Shown one piece after another: positions 1 to 60,977 of a stretch of DNA of 64,000 bases. The translations under genes and the position numbers were made by a program. This stretch comes from a virus. Below the pieces are notes generated by a model. That model did no database searches. It saw only the letters and a list, made by a program, of their open reading frames with translations, and was not told where the DNA came from. Within the stretch, counting starts at the first letter, position 1; every line of letters starts with the position of its first letter. The stretch lies in the UHGV virus genome UHGV-0039337; one strand, written 5' to 3'.

Positions 1-15
1 TTTTTTCTACTTTCA

Positions 16-645
16 TTATTTGATTCCCCCTAGTTTAGCTTTTGCTTCTTTTAATCTATGACAATCATCTAAATCTTGATGTTTAAATTCAAATCCTTTA
101 TAATATTTAGCAACTCTAAATACTCTTATTGTATTATTGTTTATATAAGCTCTTTTGCTTATATATTTGTAAGCTTTTTCTTCTGAATCGTATAATCTAG
201 TACATACAAATTTATTATCTTTATTGCTTAATGCAAATGCTATATAGCCTACAACTTCTTTATGAGATCTTTGTTTATATAAATGCATATCTTCTTTATG
301 CACTTTATTTAGAGTTTTTAATGCATTATCTAAACCAAATGCATTTGCTACATTTCCTTCAATATCTTCTATTAAAAATACTCCATCATATTGATTAGTA
401 GTTTTTTCTTTATTAACTATTACAGTTCTTATACCTTCTTTATTAAGTTTTCTTTGTTCTGTTAATGCTTTCTTTTCTGTACTATAAGTTCCATGTCTTT
501 CTAACTTTTTAGTTTTATTATTCTTAACGAAAATCATATATTCTCTATTAGTTACAATCTTTTTAAGAGCGTCAGCTTTAACTGGTACACAGTATTCTAT
601 TTCTATAACATTTTCTTTTCTTTCTGGTTTAAATATTTTATTCAT
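16..645 (-). CDS. hypothetical protein (209 aa)
   Basis: Long ORF on the dominant coding strand, AT-rich codon usage like its neighbours; no motif I can assign. Confidence 0.5.
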   Translation of the reverse strand: MNKIFKPERKENVIEIEYCVPVKADALKKIVTNREYMIFVKNNKTKKLERHGTYSTEKKALTEQRKLNKEGIRTVIVNKEKTTNQYDGVFLIEDIEGNVANAFGLDNALKTLNKVHKEDMHLYKQRSHKEVVGYIAFALSNKDNKFVCTRLYDSEEKAYKYISKRAYINNNTIRVFRVAKYYKGFEFKHQDLDDCHRLKEAKAKLGGIK

Positions 646-5387: not shown

Positions 5388-5588
5388 TTATTTTCTTATT
5401 ATTTTTACTTTTCTTGATAATATCTCATATTCTTTTCCGTTAATAGTAACTATGTCATGTTTATTGTAAACTAACATATGTTTACGTATTAAACGTTTTT
5501 TATTAAATTCTTCTATTTCACATGCTATTACCGATATAATTATAATTAATAATGTTAGTGCACCTATTATAGCACAAAAATTATACAA
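5388..5588 (-). CDS. small membrane protein (66 aa)
   Basis: Single TM segment. Confidence 0.35.
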   Translation of the reverse strand: MYNFCAIIGALTLLIIIISVIACEIEEFNKKRLIRKHMLVYNKHDIVTINGKEYEILSRKVKIIRK

Positions 5589-5608
5589 TATTTAAAGCAC
5601 CTCCATAT

Positions 5609-5899
5609 CTAAATTTCTTTAAATTCTATTTTGTCTCCATCAATGAATTCTACACTATAATGTTTAGTATTAGACGATTGAGTTCTTTCTTGTACTACTT
5701 TATATATTATATCATATTCTTTTCTTTCTATATCATCTAATAGTTTTTTAAACTCTTTATACATTATGTTATTTAAATTTATATTGTCTAAATTTAATGG
5801 ACATCTTGCTTCCAATTCATCCAAATTATTACAATCATATCTTTCATATAAATATTCTAATATACTCATAAAAACACTCTCCTTATAAAAATACATCAT
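5609..5899 (-). CDS. hypothetical protein (96 aa)
   Basis: ORF. Confidence 0.4.
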   Translation of the reverse strand: MMYFYKESVFMSILEYLYERYDCNNLDELEARCPLNLDNINLNNIMYKEFKKLLDDIERKEYDIIYKVVQERTQSSNTKHYSVEFIDGDKIEFKEI

Positions 5900-51889: not shown

Positions 51890-54478
51890 ATGGGGCCAAA
51901 AGACATAGGTAAAATACTTAAAAAACTTGGTAAGTCTAAAATAGCAAAAGAAGCAACTAAAGATGTAGCTGAAGAAGGTTTAAAATCTGTTACTGACAAT
52001 CTATTAAAAAAGAACAGTAGAATATTAAATGATATGTCTAATCCTTGGAAGAGTGAAATTATAGATACTGCAGGTGCTTTATCTCATTTATCTAATACTA
52101 AAACTACAAATGAAAAAGTTGAAGATACTATTAAAGAGATATACAGAAGAAAAGGTAATAAAAGCAATTACCCAAAACCTGAAATAACGCCACCTAAAAA
52201 TATATCAGAAGTTATAGACGATTCACAATTATTACTTAATGCTCCAAAAAAAAGAGTATCATCAAAAAAACCAATACATCAGCCAGAATACAATACTATT
52301 GAATTAGGAGAAATGCCTAAGCTTCAACCTCCTTCACAACCAAAACCAAGACAGCCACGTAGACCTCGTAGAGAATACAAATCAGACTTAGGTACTAATA
52401 CCAATCCTATCAACTTATCTGGACCAGTTGAAAAAGATTCGTTAAAACAAACTGATCATAAAAGATATAGAAGAGCTTCAAAAAGTAAAGACATTAAACA
52501 GGTAAGCTCTCTCAATGCTACTTTATCAGATAATGGAACTATACATGCTACATCTTCTTTTAAGAATGGAGAAGCAACTTATACTTCTTCTATAGAGAAA
52601 GCTCCCGGAAAAGATAAAACTTTTCATATGAATGTAGAACGTCAGGGTGAAGGCTATAGAAGTAAATATGGTCTTAATCCTAAGCGTGGTAGTGCTGATA
52701 TAAAAGAAATAAAGAAAATAGCTAATGAAGAATCCTCTCCAAAATGGCTTAAACAATATGCAGATAAGAATATACCAGACGTTAAAACAGAAACGGTTAA
52801 TGATGTAGTAAACGATACAGTAAATGAAAAAATTACAGAACAAAAAGTTCAACCAAATAAGCCAACTGAACCTAAGAAGGTAAACGTGAGTCTAGATGAC
52901 TTCAAAACTGAAGAAGAAATTAATCAGATAGATGATGTTATTAAACAGACTCAGTTAGATAGATTAGAAGAACTTCGTGAAAATGGTGACATATCTCAGA
53001 AAGATTATGAAACAGCAATAGATAACGTTATTAATGACTCTAATATGAATATTGAAGTAGATGAACAGATAATGAATAATGAACCTGAGCCTTTAAGTCC
53101 TAACTCTGGAAATAATAATACGGATAAATCTAAAAAGCAATCGAAAAGAGAACAAAGAAAACAAGAAAACGAAAAGAATAATAAAAAACAGACTAATACT
53201 AAAGAACAACAACTTAAAAATAGAAAACAAATAGATGTTACTGATAGTATTAATACTGAATCTAAAAAAAATGAACAAGATGCTATTGATGAGTTTAGAA
53301 AACAGTTTAATCCAAGACCTGTTGGCGACAATGATAAATTAGCTTATTTCGATAGAGACGGTTATAGTATTACAATGCGTAATGGTGTAGCAGAATCTAT
53401 ATCTGTTGGTGATGACACTTATGAGTATCTATATAATAAAGATGGCCATACCATGTTTAGAAATGTAGCTAATGATGAATTTTTAGAAGATTCTAAAATG
53501 GCACAACAATTTTATGATATAGGTAACCGAGAAAGACGAGATTATTTAAAGAATCTATCCGATAAAGATTGGGAAGACATAACAGGTAACCCTGAAAAGT
53601 TTGGATTCGATAGACATGATGTAGATGAACTTGGTCATGATGCGCATTTATCAAATGAATTTGATGCTTTTAATACTCGTTCTAGTTTAGCTGAAGAAAA
53701 AGCTAAAGATATTCAAAACTTATACGAAAAAGAAAAAGATAATAAAATCAAAAAAGAGTTAGCAGATAAGCGAGATAAGACCAAAATAAAGAGCTTAGAA
53801 GCTCAAAAAGAAGCTAACCGTAGAAAAATTCAATACGAAACAAGACAATCAAAGAAAAAAGCAGGAGAGAAATTTAATAAAGCTTTAGATCTTGATCAAT
53901 TCGAAAAAGGTAGTAAGGAATATTATGAAGCTCTTAAAGCTTCTAAAGGAACGGCTGCTTATGAAGAAGCGCTTAAAAATTTAAAAAGTGATTTAAATAA
54001 AGCAAGCATGATAAAAAATGCAAGAATAAAAAGTGCAGATAAACCATTGGACGGACAAATTAAAGGACTTAGCGGTAAAGGTATGACTCTTGGCAAGGCT
54101 GTTACTATTGGTTTAGCAGCTAAGACAGCAGTAGATAAATATAAAGAATCTAAAGCTGAAGGTAAAAGTACGGGTAGTTCTTTAATACGTGCAGGTGGAG
54201 CGGCTGTAGTTGGTGAAATATTAGGACCAAGTGGTTATGCAGCATTAACTATTGGTCAAGCAGTGCCAAAACTTATTGTTAATGGGGCTGACGCATTATA
54301 TAAAGAAAGTAGAAGAATGAATAGCTTTTCTAACATTACTCCTCTCGGCGGTGTTAGTTTTCAAGATAGTCAAGAATTAGCTACTATGAGACAAAGTGGC
54401 ATGGAATTGGCTAAAATGAGTCAATACAATCTTGAGCAGTCATTAATGGGAGCAGAAGCTAAACATTTACATAGATAA
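51890..54478 (+). CDS. 862-aa K/E-rich low-complexity protein (possible internal/ejection or tape-measure-like protein)
   Basis: AAGGAGGTGAG RBS; long charged low-complexity centre, Gly/Ala-rich C-terminal segment. Confidence 0.4.
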   Translation: MGPKDIGKILKKLGKSKIAKEATKDVAEEGLKSVTDNLLKKNSRILNDMSNPWKSEIIDTAGALSHLSNTKTTNEKVEDTIKEIYRRKGNKSNYPKPEITPPKNISEVIDDSQLLLNAPKKRVSSKKPIHQPEYNTIELGEMPKLQPPSQPKPRQPRRPRREYKSDLGTNTNPINLSGPVEKDSLKQTDHKRYRRASKSKDIKQVSSLNATLSDNGTIHATSSFKNGEATYTSSIEKAPGKDKTFHMNVERQGEGYRSKYGLNPKRGSADIKEIKKIANEESSPKWLKQYADKNIPDVKTETVNDVVNDTVNEKITEQKVQPNKPTEPKKVNVSLDDFKTEEEINQIDDVIKQTQLDRLEELRENGDISQKDYETAIDNVINDSNMNIEVDEQIMNNEPEPLSPNSGNNNTDKSKKQSKREQRKQENEKNNKKQTNTKEQQLKNRKQIDVTDSINTESKKNEQDAIDEFRKQFNPRPVGDNDKLAYFDRDGYSITMRNGVAESISVGDDTYEYLYNKDGHTMFRNVANDEFLEDSKMAQQFYDIGNRERRDYLKNLSDKDWEDITGNPEKFGFDRHDVDELGHDAHLSNEFDAFNTRSSLAEEKAKDIQNLYEKEKDNKIKKELADKRDKTKIKSLEAQKEANRRKIQYETRQSKKKAGEKFNKALDLDQFEKGSKEYYEALKASKGTAAYEEALKNLKSDLNKASMIKNARIKSADKPLDGQIKGLSGKGMTLGKAVTIGLAAKTAVDKYKESKAEGKSTGSSLIRAGGAAVVGEILGPSGYAALTIGQAVPKLIVNGADALYKESRRMNSFSNITPLGGVSFQDSQELATMRQSGMELAKMSQYNLEQSLMGAEAKHLHR

Positions 54479-54503
54479 CATATATAAAATGGAGTGATAT
54501 ATT

Positions 54504-55076
54504 ATGACAAACATAGATATTATAAAAGAATATACACAAAACGGAAAAGAAATACCACAAGATAAATTAGATTATTTAACCAGTAATAAAAGACTTAAAG
54601 GTTACATAGGACCTAGACAGTGTGGAAAAACTTATTTATTGTATCAAGATTTAATAAGTAATGCCTTTACTAATCCAGGTGATTATCTCGTTATAGCTCC
54701 AAACTTTCCAGTACTAAGAATCATTCAACAGCATATTGAAAAATGCCTTAAGGAATTTTTATTAGATTTTGAATATGTTAGTGTGTCACCTAGTCGTACT
54801 ATTAAAAAAATACAAAATGGTTCTACCGTTACATTTATTTCTAATTCTAGCAGAATGGAAGCTGAATATCTTATGCGTGAAAGAAGGAATTATAAAGCTG
54901 TATATATAGATGAGCCCAGAGCTATTAATAGTATATTTAATATGATCGATTTATTAAAATCCAGTATTGCACAAGAATGTGGTTATATATCAGTCTTTGG
55001 TACTATTAATAAAGAATTTGCAGAAGAATTAAAAAGCATAGGCTTTAAATTAATATATAATACAAAGGTAGCATAA
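54504..55076 (+). CDS. small P-loop ATPase translationally coupled to terL (possible small terminase subunit)
   Basis: Walker A GPRQCGKT and Walker B VYIDEP; its TAA overlaps the terL ATG (TAATG); position equivalent to gp16 in T4-like head modules. Confidence 0.4.
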   Translation: MTNIDIIKEYTQNGKEIPQDKLDYLTSNKRLKGYIGPRQCGKTYLLYQDLISNAFTNPGDYLVIAPNFPVLRIIQQHIEKCLKEFLLDFEYVSVSPSRTIKKIQNGSTVTFISNSSRMEAEYLMRERRNYKAVYIDEPRAINSIFNMIDLLKSSIAQECGYISVFGTINKEFAEELKSIGFKLIYNTKVA

Positions 55077-56845
55077 TGAGTTATAATAAAGCAGATCAAG
55101 TTAAGCTCGCTAAAATTATGAAAGACCCGGTAGCATGGGCACAGGCATTTCTTAGAACTTTTAATCCTCAAACTGGAAAAATAGAACCATGGAAAGCTAG
55201 ATGGTATCAGGTAGAAATGTTATCCGATAAAAGCAAAAGACGTGTTTATAGATGTGGACGTCGTACAGGAAAATGTATTCCTGGTTGGGCAGAAGTTATA
55301 GATTATAAAACAGGTGAAAGGGTTACTGCAGAAGAACTATATAAAAGAGGAAGAGCTAATGTAGTTACATTAAATGAAAATTATACAATTGGCAAAAACT
55401 TTACAAATCAAATATGGGATAATGGTGATAAAGAGGTTTATAGAGTTACTACTAAAACAGGTAGATATATAGATGCTACAGGGAATCATCCGTTGTTTAC
55501 AGTTAATGGATGGGTCCAAATTGATGATTTAAAATCTGGTGACAAAATAGGTATACCATCTCATTTAAATTACTGGGGCAATGAAAATATTCCCGATAAT
55601 GAAGTAAAATTATTAGCATATATGATAGGAGATGGAAATTGCACTAGCAATACGATTAGGTTTAGTGCAAACGACAATTATCCGAAAATAAAAAGAGAAA
55701 TGAAATCTATATGTGCATACTATGATTGTCAATTAAAACAATATGAATATAATTCTAATTGCGATTATAATATAGTAAAAATTGATAAAAACATTAATAG
55801 TAAATCTATTAAAAATAATATTAAAGAAGTGTTAATTGATAATGATATTTTCGGAAAGTCAGCAAAAGAAAAAAGAATACCTGATAAAATATTTAGATCC
55901 AATAAAAGGGCAGCGAGTATATTTCTATCTAGATTGTATGCTACAGATGGCTGGGTATCATATAAAACAAAAAATAAATTACAGGCTGAAATAGGATACT
56001 GTACTACAAGTGAGTTATTAGCTAGAGATATACAACACTTACTTCTTAAATTTGGAATAAATTCTTATCTTAAAACAAAAAACGTAAAATATAAAGACTC
56101 TATTAATAGAGCTTATACAGTAACTATTTATGCTAGAGAAGATTTAATTAGATTCATTAATAGTATAGATATATACGGGAAAAAACAAAAGACGAATGAA
56201 TTGTATAAATTATTGGTTAAGTCGAAAAAATCTACAAAACATATACCTAAAGATATATTAATGTTTGTGGAAGAAGAAAGAGTAAAACAGGGACTAAAGA
56301 AAAAAGACTTATGTTTAAACCATAACGATAGAATAAGATACAATAGTGATGTATCAAAAGAAAAGCTATTACATTACGGAAAAGTATTAAAGAATGATGA
56401 TTTAATAGATTTAGCTAATGGTGAAATAATTTATGATGAAATAGTGTCAATAGAATATATAGGAATCTATAAAACATACGATATATCTATTCCAATGACG
56501 TTTAACTTTGTTGTCAATGATTTCATAACGCATAATACTGAGACCATGGTTGTTGAATCATTATTTCATGTATGTACTAAAAGAAACTTTAGGGTACTTA
56601 TAGTAACGCCATATGAAACGCAAGTAAGGCTTGCTTTTATGAGACTTAATGAATTAATTCAGGAATCTCCTGTTGTTAATTCTATGGTAGTAACTAATAC
56701 TAAGAATCCTTATATGATTAAATTAAGTAATGACAGTGCCATATTAGGGTTTACTACTGGAGCGTCTTCAGGTGGTGGAGCAGCCAGTGTCAGAGGTCAA
56801 CGTGCTGACTTAATAGTAATGGACGAAGTCGATTTCGGTACAAGT
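55076..56845 (+). CDS. terL: terminase large subunit, exon 1 (ATPase domain) containing an in-frame intein
   Basis: WKARWYQVEML...RRVYRCGRRTGK / TETMVVESLFHVC... aligns with T4 gp17 (DYQKDML...CNLSRQLGKT TVVAIFLAHFVC); Walker B ADLIVMDEVDF matches gp17 FAMIYIEDCAF. The 3' coordinate is the approximate 5' splice site. Confidence 0.85.
55274..56536 (+). other. intein (421 aa) with a LAGLIDADG homing-endonuclease domain, inserted in the terL Walker A P-loop between GK and T
   Basis: Begins with Cys (CIPGWAEV), has a TxxH-type block B (GNHPLF), LAGLIDADG motifs LAYMIGDGN and LSRLYATDGW, ends ...VVNDFITHN followed by Thr+1; removing it restores GRRTGKT. Confidence 0.8.
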
Positions 56846-57974
56846 GGATTATATATGCATATACTATATTAAAAATATAGTATAGGATGTGATAAATTGG
56901 TTAATAATATTAAGTTTGCAGAACTTTTCGGTTTTATGCTAGGAGATGGCTGGTTATCTTTACATGATAACAGTAAAGGTTCTTTATGTTATAATTGTGG
57001 TTTTTCCGGAGATGAAGAATCATTGCAAAATGTTATTAATGATTTAAAAGCTTTATTTGGGGAAAACATAGGCACTGCCAGAGTTAGAACATACAGTACT
57101 TCTTCAGATAAATATAATATAAAAGGTTCTACAACAGAAGTATCTCTTAATACAAAAATAGCAAAAACATTTTTGCAGTATGGTATGCCAATAGGAAAAA
57201 GAGTAGAACAAGATTACAGCATTCCAGATTGGATTCTAAATGGAGCTTTAGAAATAAAAATAGCTTTTATTTCAGGAATTTATGCAGCAGAAGGATATAC
57301 TCCAAAAATGCAATCAAATAATAAAAGTCCTAGAGTATTGGGTTTTAATATGAGTAAAAGAAAAACTATAGGATGTTCAAATCTTGTAAAACAATTTTCA
57401 AAAATTTTAGACGATATAGGAATTGAATATAACGTAAAAATAGAAGAAGTATTTACCAAAGACTTGAATGAAAAATTTAGATTTGAATTTTGTAATAGTA
57501 CAGAGAACGTTTTTTATATAAGTTCCATATTAAAACTAAATTATTGTATAAAGAAACAGCAAAAAATGTTATTGCTTAATGAATATATAAAATATAAATT
57601 ATCAATTTTAAATAATCCTTTGAGTGAAAAATATAATCCAAATGCTCGAACAAAAAGAAAATGTTCTAATTTAAAAACTTTTGACGAGTATGTGGTTGAC
57701 TTAAAACTCCGTTAAACGGGGAAAGCTTAACTGCTAATCCCGTACCAAGCTTTAATAGTAATATTAAAGTAGCGTCTAACGACTAGAGGTGAGACCGCAT
57801 ATACGGTCAATAAAATCCTCCACGAAAGCGGGGCACTGTCTAATAGTCTTATCGTCCAAAAAATATTCTATTAGATTAAAGATATAGTCTAGCCTGGGTT
57901 GGAAATGACCAACCGATGAAAATGAGGGAAACCTCCAGAGGGTAAGATAAAGAACTTACCGTTAACAACAAGCG
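56846..57974 (+). mobile_element. group I intron (about 1.1 kb) splitting terL; the core lies downstream of the embedded HEG
   Basis: Exon reading frame breaks after DEVDFG and resumes at ...YMSEADFDSV. Intron 3' region contains group I R/S-like elements ...CGACTAGAGG... and ...AAGATATAGTCTAG... (P7 pairing GACTA/TAGTC) and is GC-elevated. Boundaries are approximate. Confidence 0.65.
56897..57715 (+). CDS. LAGLIDADG homing endonuclease encoded within the terL group I intron
   Basis: Two LAGLIDADG motifs (FGFMLGDGWLS and ISGIYAAEGY); TTG start with AGGATGTGA RBS. Confidence 0.75.
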   Translation: MVNNIKFAELFGFMLGDGWLSLHDNSKGSLCYNCGFSGDEESLQNVINDLKALFGENIGTARVRTYSTSSDKYNIKGSTTEVSLNTKIAKTFLQYGMPIGKRVEQDYSIPDWILNGALEIKIAFISGIYAAEGYTPKMQSNNKSPRVLGFNMSKRKTIGCSNLVKQFSKILDDIGIEYNVKIEEVFTKDLNEKFRFEFCNSTENVFYISSILKLNYCIKKQQKMLLLNEYIKYKLSILNNPLSEKYNPNARTKRKCSNLKTFDEYVVDLKLR

Positions 57975-59249
57975 TATATGAGTGAAGCAGACTTTGACTC
58001 TGTTATGATAATAGCTGGTGAACGTCCTGAAATACGTACTGTTATGAGTTCGACTCCTACTGGAAAACGTTCTAAATTTTATCAAGCATGTACAGATCCA
58101 GCTATGGGCTTTAAAGAGCATTTTCATCCTTCTACTCATAATCCAAACTGGAATGACGAAATGGAAGCAGAATTTAGAGCGCAGTTATCTGAACAAGGTT
58201 ATGTTCATGAAGTTGAAGCTGAATTTGGTGTACAAAATACAGGTGTATTTGATAAAGATAGAGTCGACGAAGCTAAAGAATTTTATAATTATGCATATGC
58301 TCCTCTTAACTATTATCAAGAAAATGCAATTAAACATGGAGACATAGCACCACCAGACATGCTACTTTATGATAGAAAAAATCCTGCACCATATAACAGA
58401 TTTAGAACTATTGGAGTAGACTTTGATAAGTATCAAGATACTAGTAGTATTATAGTTTTAGAATTTAACGAAACTTTTAAGAAATTCATGGTATTAAAAG
58501 CATATAACATACCACGTTCTGAATATAGCTATGATATGGCTGTTAAAACTATAATAGAACTTAATTATATATATAATCCAGCAAGAATATATTGTGACAG
58601 AGGAAATGGTGAATACCAAATAGAACAGCTATGTATTTATGGAAAAGAACATCCAGAAACAAGATTACATGAAAAAGTCAAAGGTTATCAATTTTCTCAA
58701 AAGCTTGACATAGAAAATCCTGTTACAGGTGAAATAACAAAAGAACCTATTAAACCATTTATGGTAACTCAATTACAAATAGCTTTTGAAAGAAATCAGT
58801 TAATTATATCCAAATATGATGAAAAGTTTTATAAACAGTTAATAGATTATGAAGTAGTTAATAGAGCGAAAAATGGTAATCCTATTTTTTCTGATACTAA
58901 TGAACATTTTATTGATGCATTAGGATTAGCATATTTAGCTATGACTCTTACTTTTAAACAGTTAACTGGAGTAATGAAAGAAAGAGAAGTAGCTAATAAA
59001 ATAATGATGAGTGCGCGTCATTTAATATCAAATGAAAAGGCTATTAATGCTATTAATAGATCTCAAGAAATTAAACCTGAGATACAAAGTTTTTATGAGA
59101 ATTATCAAAAAGACGAACATCCAGATGAACAACAAAGATGGGTCAAAACTGATTTTAGTACTTATTTTAAAGGTAATGATGATTATAGAGGCGGAAGATC
59201 ATCTTCTGCATGGTCACGTTCTGGTGGCCTAGGGGGATGGAAAAGATAA
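57975..59249 (+). CDS. terL: terminase large subunit, exon 2 (ATPase motif III plus C-terminal nuclease domain)
   Basis: MSSTPTGKRSKFY aligns with gp17 ITTTPNGLNHFY; downstream acidic nuclease-domain residues; reading frame is open from 57966. Confidence 0.8.
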   Translation, partial: YMSEADFDSVMIIAGERPEIRTVMSSTPTGKRSKFYQACTDPAMGFKEHFHPSTHNPNWNDEMEAEFRAQLSEQGYVHEVEAEFGVQNTGVFDKDRVDEAKEFYNYAYAPLNYYQENAIKHGDIAPPDMLLYDRKNPAPYNRFRTIGVDFDKYQDTSSIIVLEFNETFKKFMVLKAYNIPRSEYSYDMAVKTIIELNYIYNPARIYCDRGNGEYQIEQLCIYGKEHPETRLHEKVKGYQFSQKLDIENPVTGEITKEPIKPFMVTQLQIAFERNQLIISKYDEKFYKQLIDYEVVNRAKNGNPIFSDTNEHFIDALGLAYLAMTLTFKQLTGVMKEREVANKIMMSARHLISNEKAINAINRSQEIKPEIQSFYENYQKDEHPDEQQRWVKTDFSTYFKGNDDYRGGRSSSAWSRSGGLGGWKR

Positions 59250-59271
59250 CTAAAACTGGAGGTGAGATTAT

Positions 59272-60663
59272 ATGAGTAAGCAACGTATTGATTATAGACC
59301 TAATATTAAATACATTCCTGATTATCAAACAGATGGAATAAACATTAACGAACAAAATATAGATATTAGCACGCAAAAAAATAAACAACCGTTAGATACG
59401 CAATCAGTACCAGAAATAGAAGATAATATATCATATTTAGATTCAATAATCAAATTCTTACCTGCAGATTTATCTATGGCCATAAAAGAAGTATATGATC
59501 CTGTACGTGATATATTTTATAATACACTAATAGATAAAATAGTAGATCCTAATCCTCATAAACCTGAAATAATAATAAAACCAGATAAACCTCCTGACGG
59601 AGGAGGAGATAAACCTAGCAAGCCGCCAGGTGGAGGAGATAAGCCAGGGTCAGATGATAATAAAAATATTGTGCATCCTATAATTTTACGTCCTATCAAA
59701 GGTAATGATAAAGATGATGACGATCATGATGATGACAATAAAAGCATTTATCCAATTATTCTTCATCCAATAAATCTAAAAGATCCTGATAAAGATCCTG
59801 ATCCTGGACAAAAGCCTGATGAAGATAATAAAGATAAAGCTATATATCCTATTATATTAAAGCCCATATTAGATAGCACTACAAATCCTGACGATGACAA
59901 TGATAATGATAATATCGAATCGCCATATCCAATAATATTGTATCCTATTTATGAATATACAGATGATGACAATGATGATAACAATAAAAAAGACGATAAT
60001 AATAAAGATAACGATAATGACGATGACAATGATGATGAAGACGATGAAGGAGATATTGGCTTATGGGATCCTCCAAATATAAAAATTAAGTATCTGTATC
60101 CTGAACTAAATGATGCAATTGATAGAGAATTTGTATATCTGTTAACTAAATTACTTAAGCATTATACAGGTAAGTTAAAAGATATTCTTAACAACTATTA
60201 TTTTAATACTATGAGACAGTATATTGAACAAGACGAAGAAAATATTAAATTTATATCTAATAAGCTAAAAGTAACAAGTAATGATATATTGAACCATTCA
60301 AAACACTTATTAGATTCATCAGTTAAAAATGAAAATGTTGCAGCGTTAAGAACGGAATTTTTTATAAATGTTTTTACTATAAGAGATACGGCAATTCATA
60401 TTAGAAGCTTTTACGTTTCTCATGAGCTACGTAAACGTTATACAAATATTAAGTATTCAAAGGGAAAAAGTATGGCTAATTCTATGAGCGATTCTATTCT
60501 TACAAAACTTCATGCACAATATGAATTGCAATATAGAAGAGACTTTGAGAATCTGTTTAGATATTTAGAGTCTTCTTTAAAAGTAACTGAAGATATATTA
60601 AGATTGTACATACAAGATGGATTAAGTAAATCCACAATCATTAAGAAGGGCGGTATTAAATAA
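59272..60663 (+). CDS. 463-aa protein with five tandem (I/Y)YPIILxPI repeats separated by D/N/K-rich linkers
   Basis: GGAGGTGAG RBS; repeats IVHPIILRPI, IYPIILHPI, IYPIILKPI, PYPIILYPI. Confidence 0.5.
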   Translation: MSKQRIDYRPNIKYIPDYQTDGININEQNIDISTQKNKQPLDTQSVPEIEDNISYLDSIIKFLPADLSMAIKEVYDPVRDIFYNTLIDKIVDPNPHKPEIIIKPDKPPDGGGDKPSKPPGGGDKPGSDDNKNIVHPIILRPIKGNDKDDDDHDDDNKSIYPIILHPINLKDPDKDPDPGQKPDEDNKDKAIYPIILKPILDSTTNPDDDNDNDNIESPYPIILYPIYEYTDDDNDDNNKKDDNNKDNDNDDDNDDEDDEGDIGLWDPPNIKIKYLYPELNDAIDREFVYLLTKLLKHYTGKLKDILNNYYFNTMRQYIEQDEENIKFISNKLKVTSNDILNHSKHLLDSSVKNENVAALRTEFFINVFTIRDTAIHIRSFYVSHELRKRYTNIKYSKGKSMANSMSDSILTKLHAQYELQYRRDFENLFRYLESSLKVTEDILRLYIQDGLSKSTIIKKGGIK

Positions 60664-60977
60664 TGAAATTAGAACCATTAGGAGATAATATTATAATTGA
60701 ATTAGATGAAATTAAAAAAAGTAAAGAGAAAACATTAAAATCAGGTTTGATAATTCCACCAGCAAATATATCAGATCAAGAAGCACGACAAGATATGGCT
60801 ACTGTTGTAGCAGTCGGTGAGGGACGAATGCTAAACAATGGTAGATTAATACCTTTAAAAGTAAAACCTGGAAGCAGAGTTTTATTTAATAAATATGCTG
60901 GTACTCAATTAGTTAAAGATGATAAAACATACTTAATATTAAAAGAATGTGATATATTAGCTATTATAAAAGACTAA
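60663..60977 (+). CDS. groES: GroES-type co-chaperonin (Cpn10 / T4 gp31 functional analogue)
   Basis: Full-length alignment to GroES: MKLEPLGDNIIIE, SGLIIP, mobile-loop region, VVAVGEGR, GSRVLFNKYAGT, DILAII. Confidence 0.8.
   Translation: MKLEPLGDNIIIELDEIKKSKEKTLKSGLIIPPANISDQEARQDMATVVAVGEGRMLNNGRLIPLKVKPGSRVLFNKYAGTQLVKDDKTYLILKECDILAIIKD

Follow-up and report, generated by a model that had tools for sequence, protein, structure and literature searches.

How a large terminase gene (terL) that is split across three open reading frames (ORFs) could still yield one intact protein is the question raised by a locus in the UHGV virus genome UHGV-0039337, from an uncultured AT-rich jumbo phage. 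The stretch of this genome that we analysed, a window of 64,000 nucleotides (nt) with a G+C content (GC) of 28%, carries the gene as ORFs at 55076..56872 (598 amino acids, aa), 56897..57715 (272 aa, with a TTG start) and 57978..59249 (423 aa), the arrangement that a preliminary description of this DNA had drawn from a list of its ORFs; all window features discussed below lie on the plus strand. The answer we favour, with a probability of about 0.9, is that terL carries two unrelated homing elements, an intein in the Walker A motif and a group I intron just after Walker B, which would be removed at different levels to give one intact large terminase of 589 aa. This reading draws on the anatomy of the gene, the exact junctions, the conservation of splicing residues, covariation in the RNA and a presence/absence polymorphism among relatives, each seen in silico.

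Key to this reading is the product obtained when the intein is removed and the exons are joined in silico. Removal of a 421-aa intein and a 1141-nt intron leaves a TerL of 589 aa, and a search of this spliced protein against a collection of 5.8 billion proteins returned dozens of uninterrupted proteins, 587-591 aa long and 81-92% identical at 100% coverage, which lie on contigs of up to 279 kb and are collinear with the doubly spliced product. The gene had been described as being of the T4 gp17 type, and both sequence and fold bear this out. The spliced protein exceeds the Pfam cut-off for Terminase_6N (30.6 bits against 22, residues 61-211) in a match that crosses both insertion sites, and the same family is matched by 24 of 24 aligned homologues. 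The third ORF is assigned to PHROG 2, terminase large subunit (E = 1.3e-12), and the C-terminal nuclease region scored 17.3 bits for Terminase_6C, where the cut-off is 22.6. When an AlphaFold model of the spliced protein (mean predicted local distance difference test score 74) was compared with known structures by Foldseek, the best match was T4 gp17 itself (3cpe, E = 1e-21, 519 aligned columns), followed by the large terminases of Sf6, D6E, T7 and HK97 and then by isolated ATPase and nuclease domains, the fold matches of the nuclease domain including RB49 gp17 and SPP1 G2P. A sequence-only search of the PDB with the spliced protein gave a weak match only, to the ATPase of P74-26 TerL. The nearest cultured relatives are the TerL proteins of Moorella phage MTATph1 (44% identity) and of 0305phi8-36-like Bacillus jumbo phages (31-37%); almost every match in cultured phages carries a TerL annotation, and a megablast search of positions 54000-60000 against deposited phages returned no match.

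The first interruption falls inside the ATP-binding loop. The N-extein (M1-K66, 55076..55273) ends in the Walker A residues GRRTGK and is collinear with the uninterrupted homologues P0001-P0066. It is followed at 55274..56536 by an in-frame insertion of exactly 421 codons (residues 67-487 of the first ORF), which runs from Cys1 to N421 and precedes a Thr at +1; the remainder of exon 1, from T67 to LIVMDEVD165 in mature numbering, occupies 56537..56833 and ends in Walker B. These limits agree to the residue with the earlier proposal of a 421-aa insert that begins with Cys after GRRTGK and ends in THN before TET, the fuller context of this end being FITHN before TETMVV, and excision does restore Walker A, the uninterrupted homologues reading GRRTGKTE (YRCGRRTGKTETMVVES) across the site. 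At the nucleotide level, comparison of the N-extein junction with two related contigs (L006 and L007) gave the empty site as ...CGTACCGGGAAA|ACAGAAACA....

All of the residues expected of class 1 splicing are present in this insert: Cys1, Thr69 and His72 of block B (GRYIDATGNHPLFT, aa 63-76, including T69-G-N-H72), the His420-Asn421 pair of block G (FITHN, aa 417-421) and the +1 Thr, together with a block F that reads YDISIPMTFNF (aa 402-412). Two LAGLIDADG motifs, LLAYMIGDG (aa 113-121) and FLSRLYATDG (aa 217-226), retain their acidic residues D120 and D225. Profile searches agree, with the first ORF passing the Pfam cut-offs for Intein_splicing (PF14890; 87.3 bits against 35.8, E = 1.2e-24) and LAGLIDADG_3 (PF14528; 57.3 bits against 22.5, E = 1.9e-15) and the insert that for TIGR01445 intein_Nterm (36.6 bits against 24.5), while the intein over its whole length matches the intein segment of the NCBIfam DnaB model NF005852 with 243 bits. 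The Hint-like blocks and paired LAGLIDADG motifs noted earlier are thus recovered by curated Pfam and NCBIfam models with every catalytic residue in place, and the hidden Markov model search that had been suggested as a check did find the splicing blocks. Among solved structures, the Npu and Ssp DnaB mini-inteins of cyanobacteria (4o1r and 1mi8) come nearest, and both splicing halves align to them. Furthermore, homologous inteins occupy the identical site in three proteins of related uncultured phages (P0068, P0103 and P0118; 48-67% identity to the whole first ORF, extein and intein together) and in gp116 of Bacillus phage vB_BceM_WH1 (32% identity over 421 aa, E = 8e-65). Judged by its sequence motifs, the 421-aa insert is a class 1 intein with a nested LAGLIDADG endonuclease.

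The second interruption lies just downstream of Walker B, where the homologues read LIVMDEVD-YMSEADFDSV with no additional residues. The preliminary description had placed an interruption of about 1.1 kb after a Walker B written as DEVDFG. Its position after Walker B stands and its length is 1141 nt by comparison with the homologues, but the final 'FG' is intronic and the exon ends at T56833, after DEVD; since the homologues read MDEVD|YMSEAD, 'FGTSGLYMHILY' represents read-through into the intron rather than terminase sequence. The terminase frame does resume, as had been proposed, at YMSEADFDSV, the residues that follow MDEVD in the uninterrupted proteins. Empty alleles read ...GAGGTTGAC TATATGAGT... 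where the window reads ...GAAGTCGAT|TTCGGT...AACAAGCG|TATATGAGT.... With the requirement that a U precede the 5' splice site and a G form the final base of the intron, these alignments allow a single solution: splice sites at T56833|T56834 and G57974|T57975 and an intron of 1141 nt at 56834..57974, with U56833 at -1 and a terminal omega G at 57974, the junction being set by homology. Exon 2 (57975..59249; Y166...R589 and the stop codon) completes the ATPase domain and adds a probable RNase H-like nuclease domain. The predicted ligated exon junction, ...ATGGACGAAGTCGAT|TATATGAGTGAAGCA..., restores the frame as MDEVD|YMSEAD, identical to that of the uninterrupted homologues.

An internal guide sequence at 57689..57702 pairs with both of these exon ends. 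Its first part, TATGTG (57689-57694; RNA UAUGUG), forms a P10 of 6 bp with TATATG, the first 6 nt of exon 2, and its second part, GTTGACTT (57695-57702; RNA GUUGACUU), forms a P1 of 8 bp with the final 8 nt of exon 1, AAGTCGAT (56826-56833), including a G.U pair at U56833. In a systematic search this guide site was the best in the intron, with 14 consecutive pairs as against 8 for the runner-up; an alternative guide close to the intron's 5' end (GUGGAU, position 56845) has a G-G mismatch, went unranked in that search and was rejected. P1 is maintained across alleles, with an exon 1 end of GUCGAU and a guide of GUUGAC in the window and L009, GUGGAU and GUCCAC in L012, L014 and L022, and AUGGAU and GUCCAU in L030, so that the exon and guide changes in the last four contigs are compensatory. 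In addition, exon 1 ends in GAT in every intron-bearing allele as opposed to GAC in the empty ones, P10 tracks the third exon base and is 6 bp long in the window, L009, L012, L014 and L022, and a G precedes exon 2 in six of the six introns at this site.

Between the guide and exon 2 lies the ribozyme core. The Rfam search proposed earlier gave a match of RF00028 to 57663..57912 at 49.3 bits (E = 4e-11) when it was run in E-value mode on a short stretch, a score just under the gathering threshold. We drew the core by hand on an alignment (A3) of 17 sequences, in which it extends from P3 to P9.2 (57707..57961) and comprises P3 (57707-13/57827-33), P4 (57716-21/57738-43), P6 (57744-45/57774-75), P6a (57749-57/57762-70), P7 (57781-85/57885-89), P7.1 (57786-89/57817-20), P7.1a (57793-97/57804-08), P8 (57838-46/57868-76), P9 (57896-902/57909-15), P9.1 (57924-27/57932-35) and P9.2 (57940-46/57955-61). 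The R- and S-like elements that had been noticed in a GC-elevated tail find their places in this structure, GACTA (57781-57785) as the 5' strand of P7 and AAGATATAGTC (57879-57889) as J8/7 together with the 3' strand of P7, and the elevation itself amounts to 36-39% GC over the ribozyme, where the endonuclease ORF has 20-26% in its 3' half. Across the 17 sequences, 84.5% of alignment cells pair under the structure, the P3/P7 pseudoknot included, compared with 32-49% when the partner strand is slid, and both-sided changes occur in 37 of the 65 core pairs; the observed values were reached in none of 500 shuffles. Taken alone, the core has a folding energy of -80.5 kcal/mol (z = -4.8), and P3, P4, P6a, P7.1a, P8, P9, P9.1 and P9.2 are all part of its minimum-energy fold. 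A group I fold with P1, P10 and a P3-P9.2 core is therefore detectable, and on sequence and predicted structure the segment 56834..57974 is a group I intron placed just after Walker B, for which the P7.1 and P7.1a helices, situated between P7 and P3's 3' strand, suggest subgroup IA. A related contig, L022, carries an ORF-less intron of 261 nt at the same terL site (5532..5792), in which a P1 closed by a 16-nt loop leads directly into P3. This marks an intron family without P2, and places the ORF of the window intron as an insertion in the P1 loop; in the window, too, the guide is followed by P3 after 4 nt.

These observations bear on the possibility of a genuinely split terL, in which the 272-aa ORF would stand free between two separately translated halves that assemble non-covalently, with no RNA splicing. 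Cases are known of phage genes divided by a free-standing endonuclease gene, and the ORF of exon 2 has an ATG of its own at 57978. Against this, a complete and covarying group I core sits exactly between the endonuclease stop and exon 2, the guide pairs and co-varies with both exon ends, the 261-nt form at the same site in L022 has no ORF, and the break falls directly after Walker B (DEVD|YM) at a point where the homologues have no extra residues. We consider a split gene extremely improbable.

Under the intron reading, the ORF at 56897..57715 is the gene of a predicted double-motif LAGLIDADG homing endonuclease of 272 aa, preceded by AGGA at 56885-56888, with motifs LFGFMLGDG (aa 10-18) and FISGIYAAEG (aa 124-133) and acidic residues D17 and E132. 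The preliminary description had called it free-standing: its two motifs do lie inside the intron, but the ORF is embedded in the P1 loop and overlaps the ribozyme at its 3' end, where its final codons double as the guide sequence and P3's 5' strand and its stop codon falls in J3/4. The protein aligns to the endonuclease part of an NCBIfam model of intein-containing RtcB (E = 4e-25). At 28% GC, a stop-free run of 272 codons has a chance probability of ~9e-13, the figure for the 421 codons of the intein being ~7e-20. In every contig fetched (L009-L015), the same terL intron holds a homologue of the endonuclease (P0121, P0123, P0126 and P0133; 44-95% identity), and in L030 this loop too contains a related ORF with LAGLIDADG motifs, identified by eye and unscored; a search of IMG/VR with the back-translated endonuclease found no relative. 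A common origin of the two LAGLIDADG proteins of the window was considered and set aside, the identity between them being only 23% over 107 aa (E = 0.011). As a separate observation, the endonuclease ORF is in frame with exon 1, from which it is separated by a single TAA (56870-56872), and a perfect 9-bp hairpin, ATACTATAT/ATATAGTAT (56860-56868/56874-56882), spans this codon and ends just before the AGGA at 56885. A role of this hairpin in expression of the endonuclease is possible.

Comparison with related phages places the window within a polymorphism that comprises all four allelic states. Contigs with the same intron at the same site were reached through homologues of the endonuclease (L009/L010, L011, L012/L013 and L014/L015), and a search with a conserved 21-mer of the core added L022 and L030 along with family members in other genes. 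Both elements are present in the window, L009 and L010, the intron alone in L011, L012, L014, L022 and L030, the intein alone in L002 and L003, and neither in L006, L007 and most of the homologue matches. Exon 1 of L007, which has neither element, is 95% identical to exon 1 of the intron-bearing L011. That the L011 lineage acquired the intron by recent horizontal transfer is not supported, as the identity of the intron (83%) is close to that of the exons (81%).

The relatives likewise speak to whether terL might be a decaying pseudogene, one or both of its elements having lost the ability to splice, in a phage that is defective or dependent on a helper. An Rfam score just under the cut-off would fit such decay, as would the damaged terL copies or assemblies that occur among the relatives, for example the frameshift in L008. 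However, the catalytic residues of the intein are all intact and both long ORFs have stayed free of stop codons; the two-element allele recurs in two other samples (L009 and L010) at 93-96% nucleotide identity with all features kept; P1, P10 and the core helices stay paired through compensatory changes; and the exons are conserved to the same degree as in uninterrupted alleles. Decay is thus very improbable as an explanation of this locus. The L008 case itself, found while P0071 was being weighed as a second split allele, has no intron: terL is broken into ORFs of 155 and 421 aa within the Gly-rich loop GASSGGGAAS (L008 6900..7000) by a short deletion or a frameshift, probably because the contig is misassembled or the copy defective.

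If both elements are active, one terminase would be produced in two steps. In the RNA, the 1141-nt intron would fold so that the guide at 57689-57702 pairs with the end of exon 1 as P1 and with the start of exon 2 as P10, and guanosine-initiated transesterification would join ...GTCGAT to TATATG..., giving MDEVD-YMSEAD. In the translated precursor, the class 1 intein between Lys66 and the Thr of Walker A would then be removed by four-step protein splicing carried out by Cys1, the block B Thr and His, the terminal His-Asn and the +1 Thr, leaving GRRTGKTE. At the DNA level, the LAGLIDADG endonuclease of each element would be expected to cut the empty alleles of co-infecting relatives at targets that are invariant catalytic motifs, with repair copying the element in.

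Several points weigh against this account. Actual splicing and actual homing are steps that we infer from sequence, and the ribozyme may depend on a host chaperone or on its own LAGLIDADG protein acting as a maturase. Neither P3 nor P7 varies within the family, so that these two helices contribute no covariation evidence, and P10 is weak in L030. The intron endonuclease scores below the Pfam cut-offs for LAGLIDADG_2 (PF03161; 21.1 against 25) and LAGLIDADG_3 (PF14528; 19.8 against 22.5). Finally, a default Rfam scan of the window returned no hit, RF00028 scoring 0.7 bit under its gathering cut-off of 50. Rfam was similarly without hits on L001, L002, L004, L004 7100-8420 and L012 4880-7260, and RF00028 at E <= 1 had none on L012 5884..6189, a core that is 78% identical to that of the window and clearly homologous to it. 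Since the model is silent on this homologous core, a missing Rfam hit is uninformative for this intron lineage, which scans based on Rfam will undercount.

A variant of the same reading holds that splicing is conditional, with an intron that depends on a maturase, a host factor or coupling to translation, or an intein whose Cys1 is sensitive to redox state, or both, setting the timing of terminase production or sensing conditions for it; the elements would then go beyond the part of neutral parasites. Ribosomes that translate the endonuclease ORF pass over the guide and P3's 5' strand (57689-57715) and would have to compete with folding of the ribozyme, and in Bacillus phages certain terL introns splice in vivo and not in vitro, late in infection (PMC11878797). 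Most close relatives, on the other hand, lack both elements, so that no regulatory role is required, and nothing in the sequence demands one; we regard conditional splicing as unlikely. Quite doubtful, in our estimate, is a broader proposal in which the intron represents a distinct, undescribed lineage of phage group I introns in the catalytic motifs of P-loop nucleoside triphosphatases, forming with the intein a two-step terminase gate sensitive to translation and redox state. The marks of such a lineage may be the absence of P2, an ORF in the P1 loop that extends over the guide and P3, an invariant 21-mer across P3/P7.1 and a shared P9.1/P9.2 tail; its preferred targets may be terL, DnaB-like helicases and other ATPases, and its LAGLIDADG gene may be of a type otherwise seen in archaeal-style inteins.

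Insertions into terL in this clade extend beyond the two sites of the window. At least two further intron sites were found, and terL of L012 holds two introns. In L001, a different group I intron (1..135) ends ahead of LIVMDEVD, 24 nt upstream of the site used in the window, and L001, with its protein P0067, was rejected on this account as a carrier of the same intron. In the nuclease domain, a site at CDRGxG|EYQ is occupied in L004/L005 by an intron with a different LAGLIDADG gene (268 aa; L004 7150..8290) and in L012 (6850..7150) by one without an ORF; these nuclease-domain introns have a 3' tail (GATGAAAATGAGGGAAACCTCCAGAGG..AAGATAAA) in common with the window intron and a different core. 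In all, terL has at least three intron sites and one intein site, and each of them falls on a catalytic motif, a placement that fits homing elements.

The core family defined by the invariant 21-mer CTCCACGAAAGCGGGGCACTG was also seen to interrupt other phage genes in metagenomes (L016, L020, L023-L028, L031 and L032), and the translations of several exons downstream of these introns resemble, by eye, DnaB-type helicases or other ATPases. Gene product gp116 of vB_BceM_WH1 (LC597490.1; L033 1567..4491), a protein of 974 aa deposited as 'terminase large subunit family protein', holds an unannotated P-loop intein of ~404 aa homologous to that of the window, and Phage Edson (PV796108.1) gives a near-identical tblastn pattern, the matching coding sequence (CDS) being labelled hypothetical. 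Three uninterrupted TerL homologues (P0061, P0077 and P0119) are publicly named 'DEAD/DEAH box helicase family protein' or 'replicative DNA helicase', which look like misannotations. The former label stems from a Romboutsia timonensis metagenome-assembled genome, which together with the 28% GC of the window hints at a clostridial host.

The surroundings of terL are likewise shared among relatives. The portal gene lies 1.7 kb downstream, a context that fits a packaging gene and recurs in homologous loci, and between the portal gene and the ORF downstream of terL is a gene for a 104-aa Cpn10/GroES homologue (60663..60977; Pfam PF00166) that is kept in all related loci. Directly upstream, an ORF of 190 aa (54504..55076) has a stop codon that overlaps the ATG of terL. 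Its product matches Pfam Terminase_6N at 24.8 bits (cut-off 22), with a Walker A motif GPRQCGKT and a Walker B-like YIDEP, and an ORF of like size and position is present upstream of terL in L007, L008, L009 and L011. By its sequence the product resembles a shortened paralogue of the ATPase of TerL, and it may act as a substitute for the small terminase.

Both elements of the window are of types already known, as are the types of site they occupy, and the finding leaves knowledge of how inteins or group I introns work unchanged. Its use is in part practical: it guides correct annotation of terL in a clade of uncultured gut jumbo phages where gene callers report three ORFs, and it supplies base-exact junctions that can be checked in metatranscriptomes. 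With the empty, intein-only, intron-only and two-element states all represented in related phages, the locus offers a clean natural case that is useful for the study of homing dynamics and co-conversion, and for phylogenies based on terL, which unrecognised insertions would distort. The 261-nt form in L022 is in addition a natural template for a mini-ribozyme.

Among known systems, we take the intron to resemble the subgroup IA introns of phages, such as those of T4 td, nrdB and sunY, Twort orf142 and SPO1, in its P7.1/P7.1a pairings, its AAGATATAGTC element, its P9.1 and P9.2 and its placement in a conserved phage enzyme gene; it presumably differs from them in lacking P2 and in carrying its ORF in L1 rather than in the loops of P6, P8 or P9. 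The stacking of intron and intein in phage genes also has a precedent, in that the ribonucleotide reductase genes of the Bacillus subtilis prophage SPbeta carry both intron(s) and an intein.

The site of the intein is a familiar one. Mycobacteriophage inteins of the TerL1-a type lie between the invariant Lys and Thr of Walker A, the 'classic' P-loop site (Kelley et al. 2016, PMC5050341), and like that of the window they are class 1 inteins of the ATPase domain with a +1 Thr nucleophile, a likeness of site and class. The host protein of the window, in contrast, belongs to Terminase_6, in which the survey in PMC5050341 has inteins only at the C-motif, and its intein, set against those of mycobacteriophages by description, is full-length, bears LAGLIDADG motifs and has DnaB-type inteins as its best model match. 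The gp116 protein of the cultured vB_BceM_WH1 (230 kb) has the same intein site (CGRRVGK|C...VHN|T) in a TerL of the same broad lineage at 37% identity; unlike the terL of the window, it is a single CDS of 974 aa with no intron interruption apparent.

Group I introns in terL have been described in the Bacillus Bastillevirinae phages SIOphi and phiAGATE (PMC11878797) and in gut 'Jug' jumbo phages (PMC12880540), where splicing was shown by reverse transcription PCR, nanopore or metatranscriptome reads (PMC11878797, PMC12880540). Compared with these by description, the window intron has a LAGLIDADG gene in its P1 loop where the loop-encoded nucleases of Bastillevirinae are mostly HNH (PMC11878797), and at 1141 nt with an ORF it is far longer than the Jug phage introns, which average ~206 nt and are mostly ORF-less (PMC12880540). 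Terminases are among the typical targets of phage introns, and LAGLIDADG is not the usual enzyme type in them (PMC3984707). The stacking of two such elements in one packaging gene had been called uncommon, which overstates the case, as P-loop inteins of TerL and group I introns of terL are both documented (PMC5050341, PMC11878797, PMC12880540, PMC7886860) and a cultured relative shares the intein site. An intein together with a group I intron in one terL is nevertheless not described in the literature cited here, and is a new combination, not a new mechanism. A parallel for such accumulation is provided by the crAss-like Zeta and Delta phages, which are rich in introns and inteins and in the Delta group of which TerL typically has an intein, in one example two (PMC7886860); in these phages as in the window, independent selfish elements at the RNA and protein levels reside in essential phage genes.

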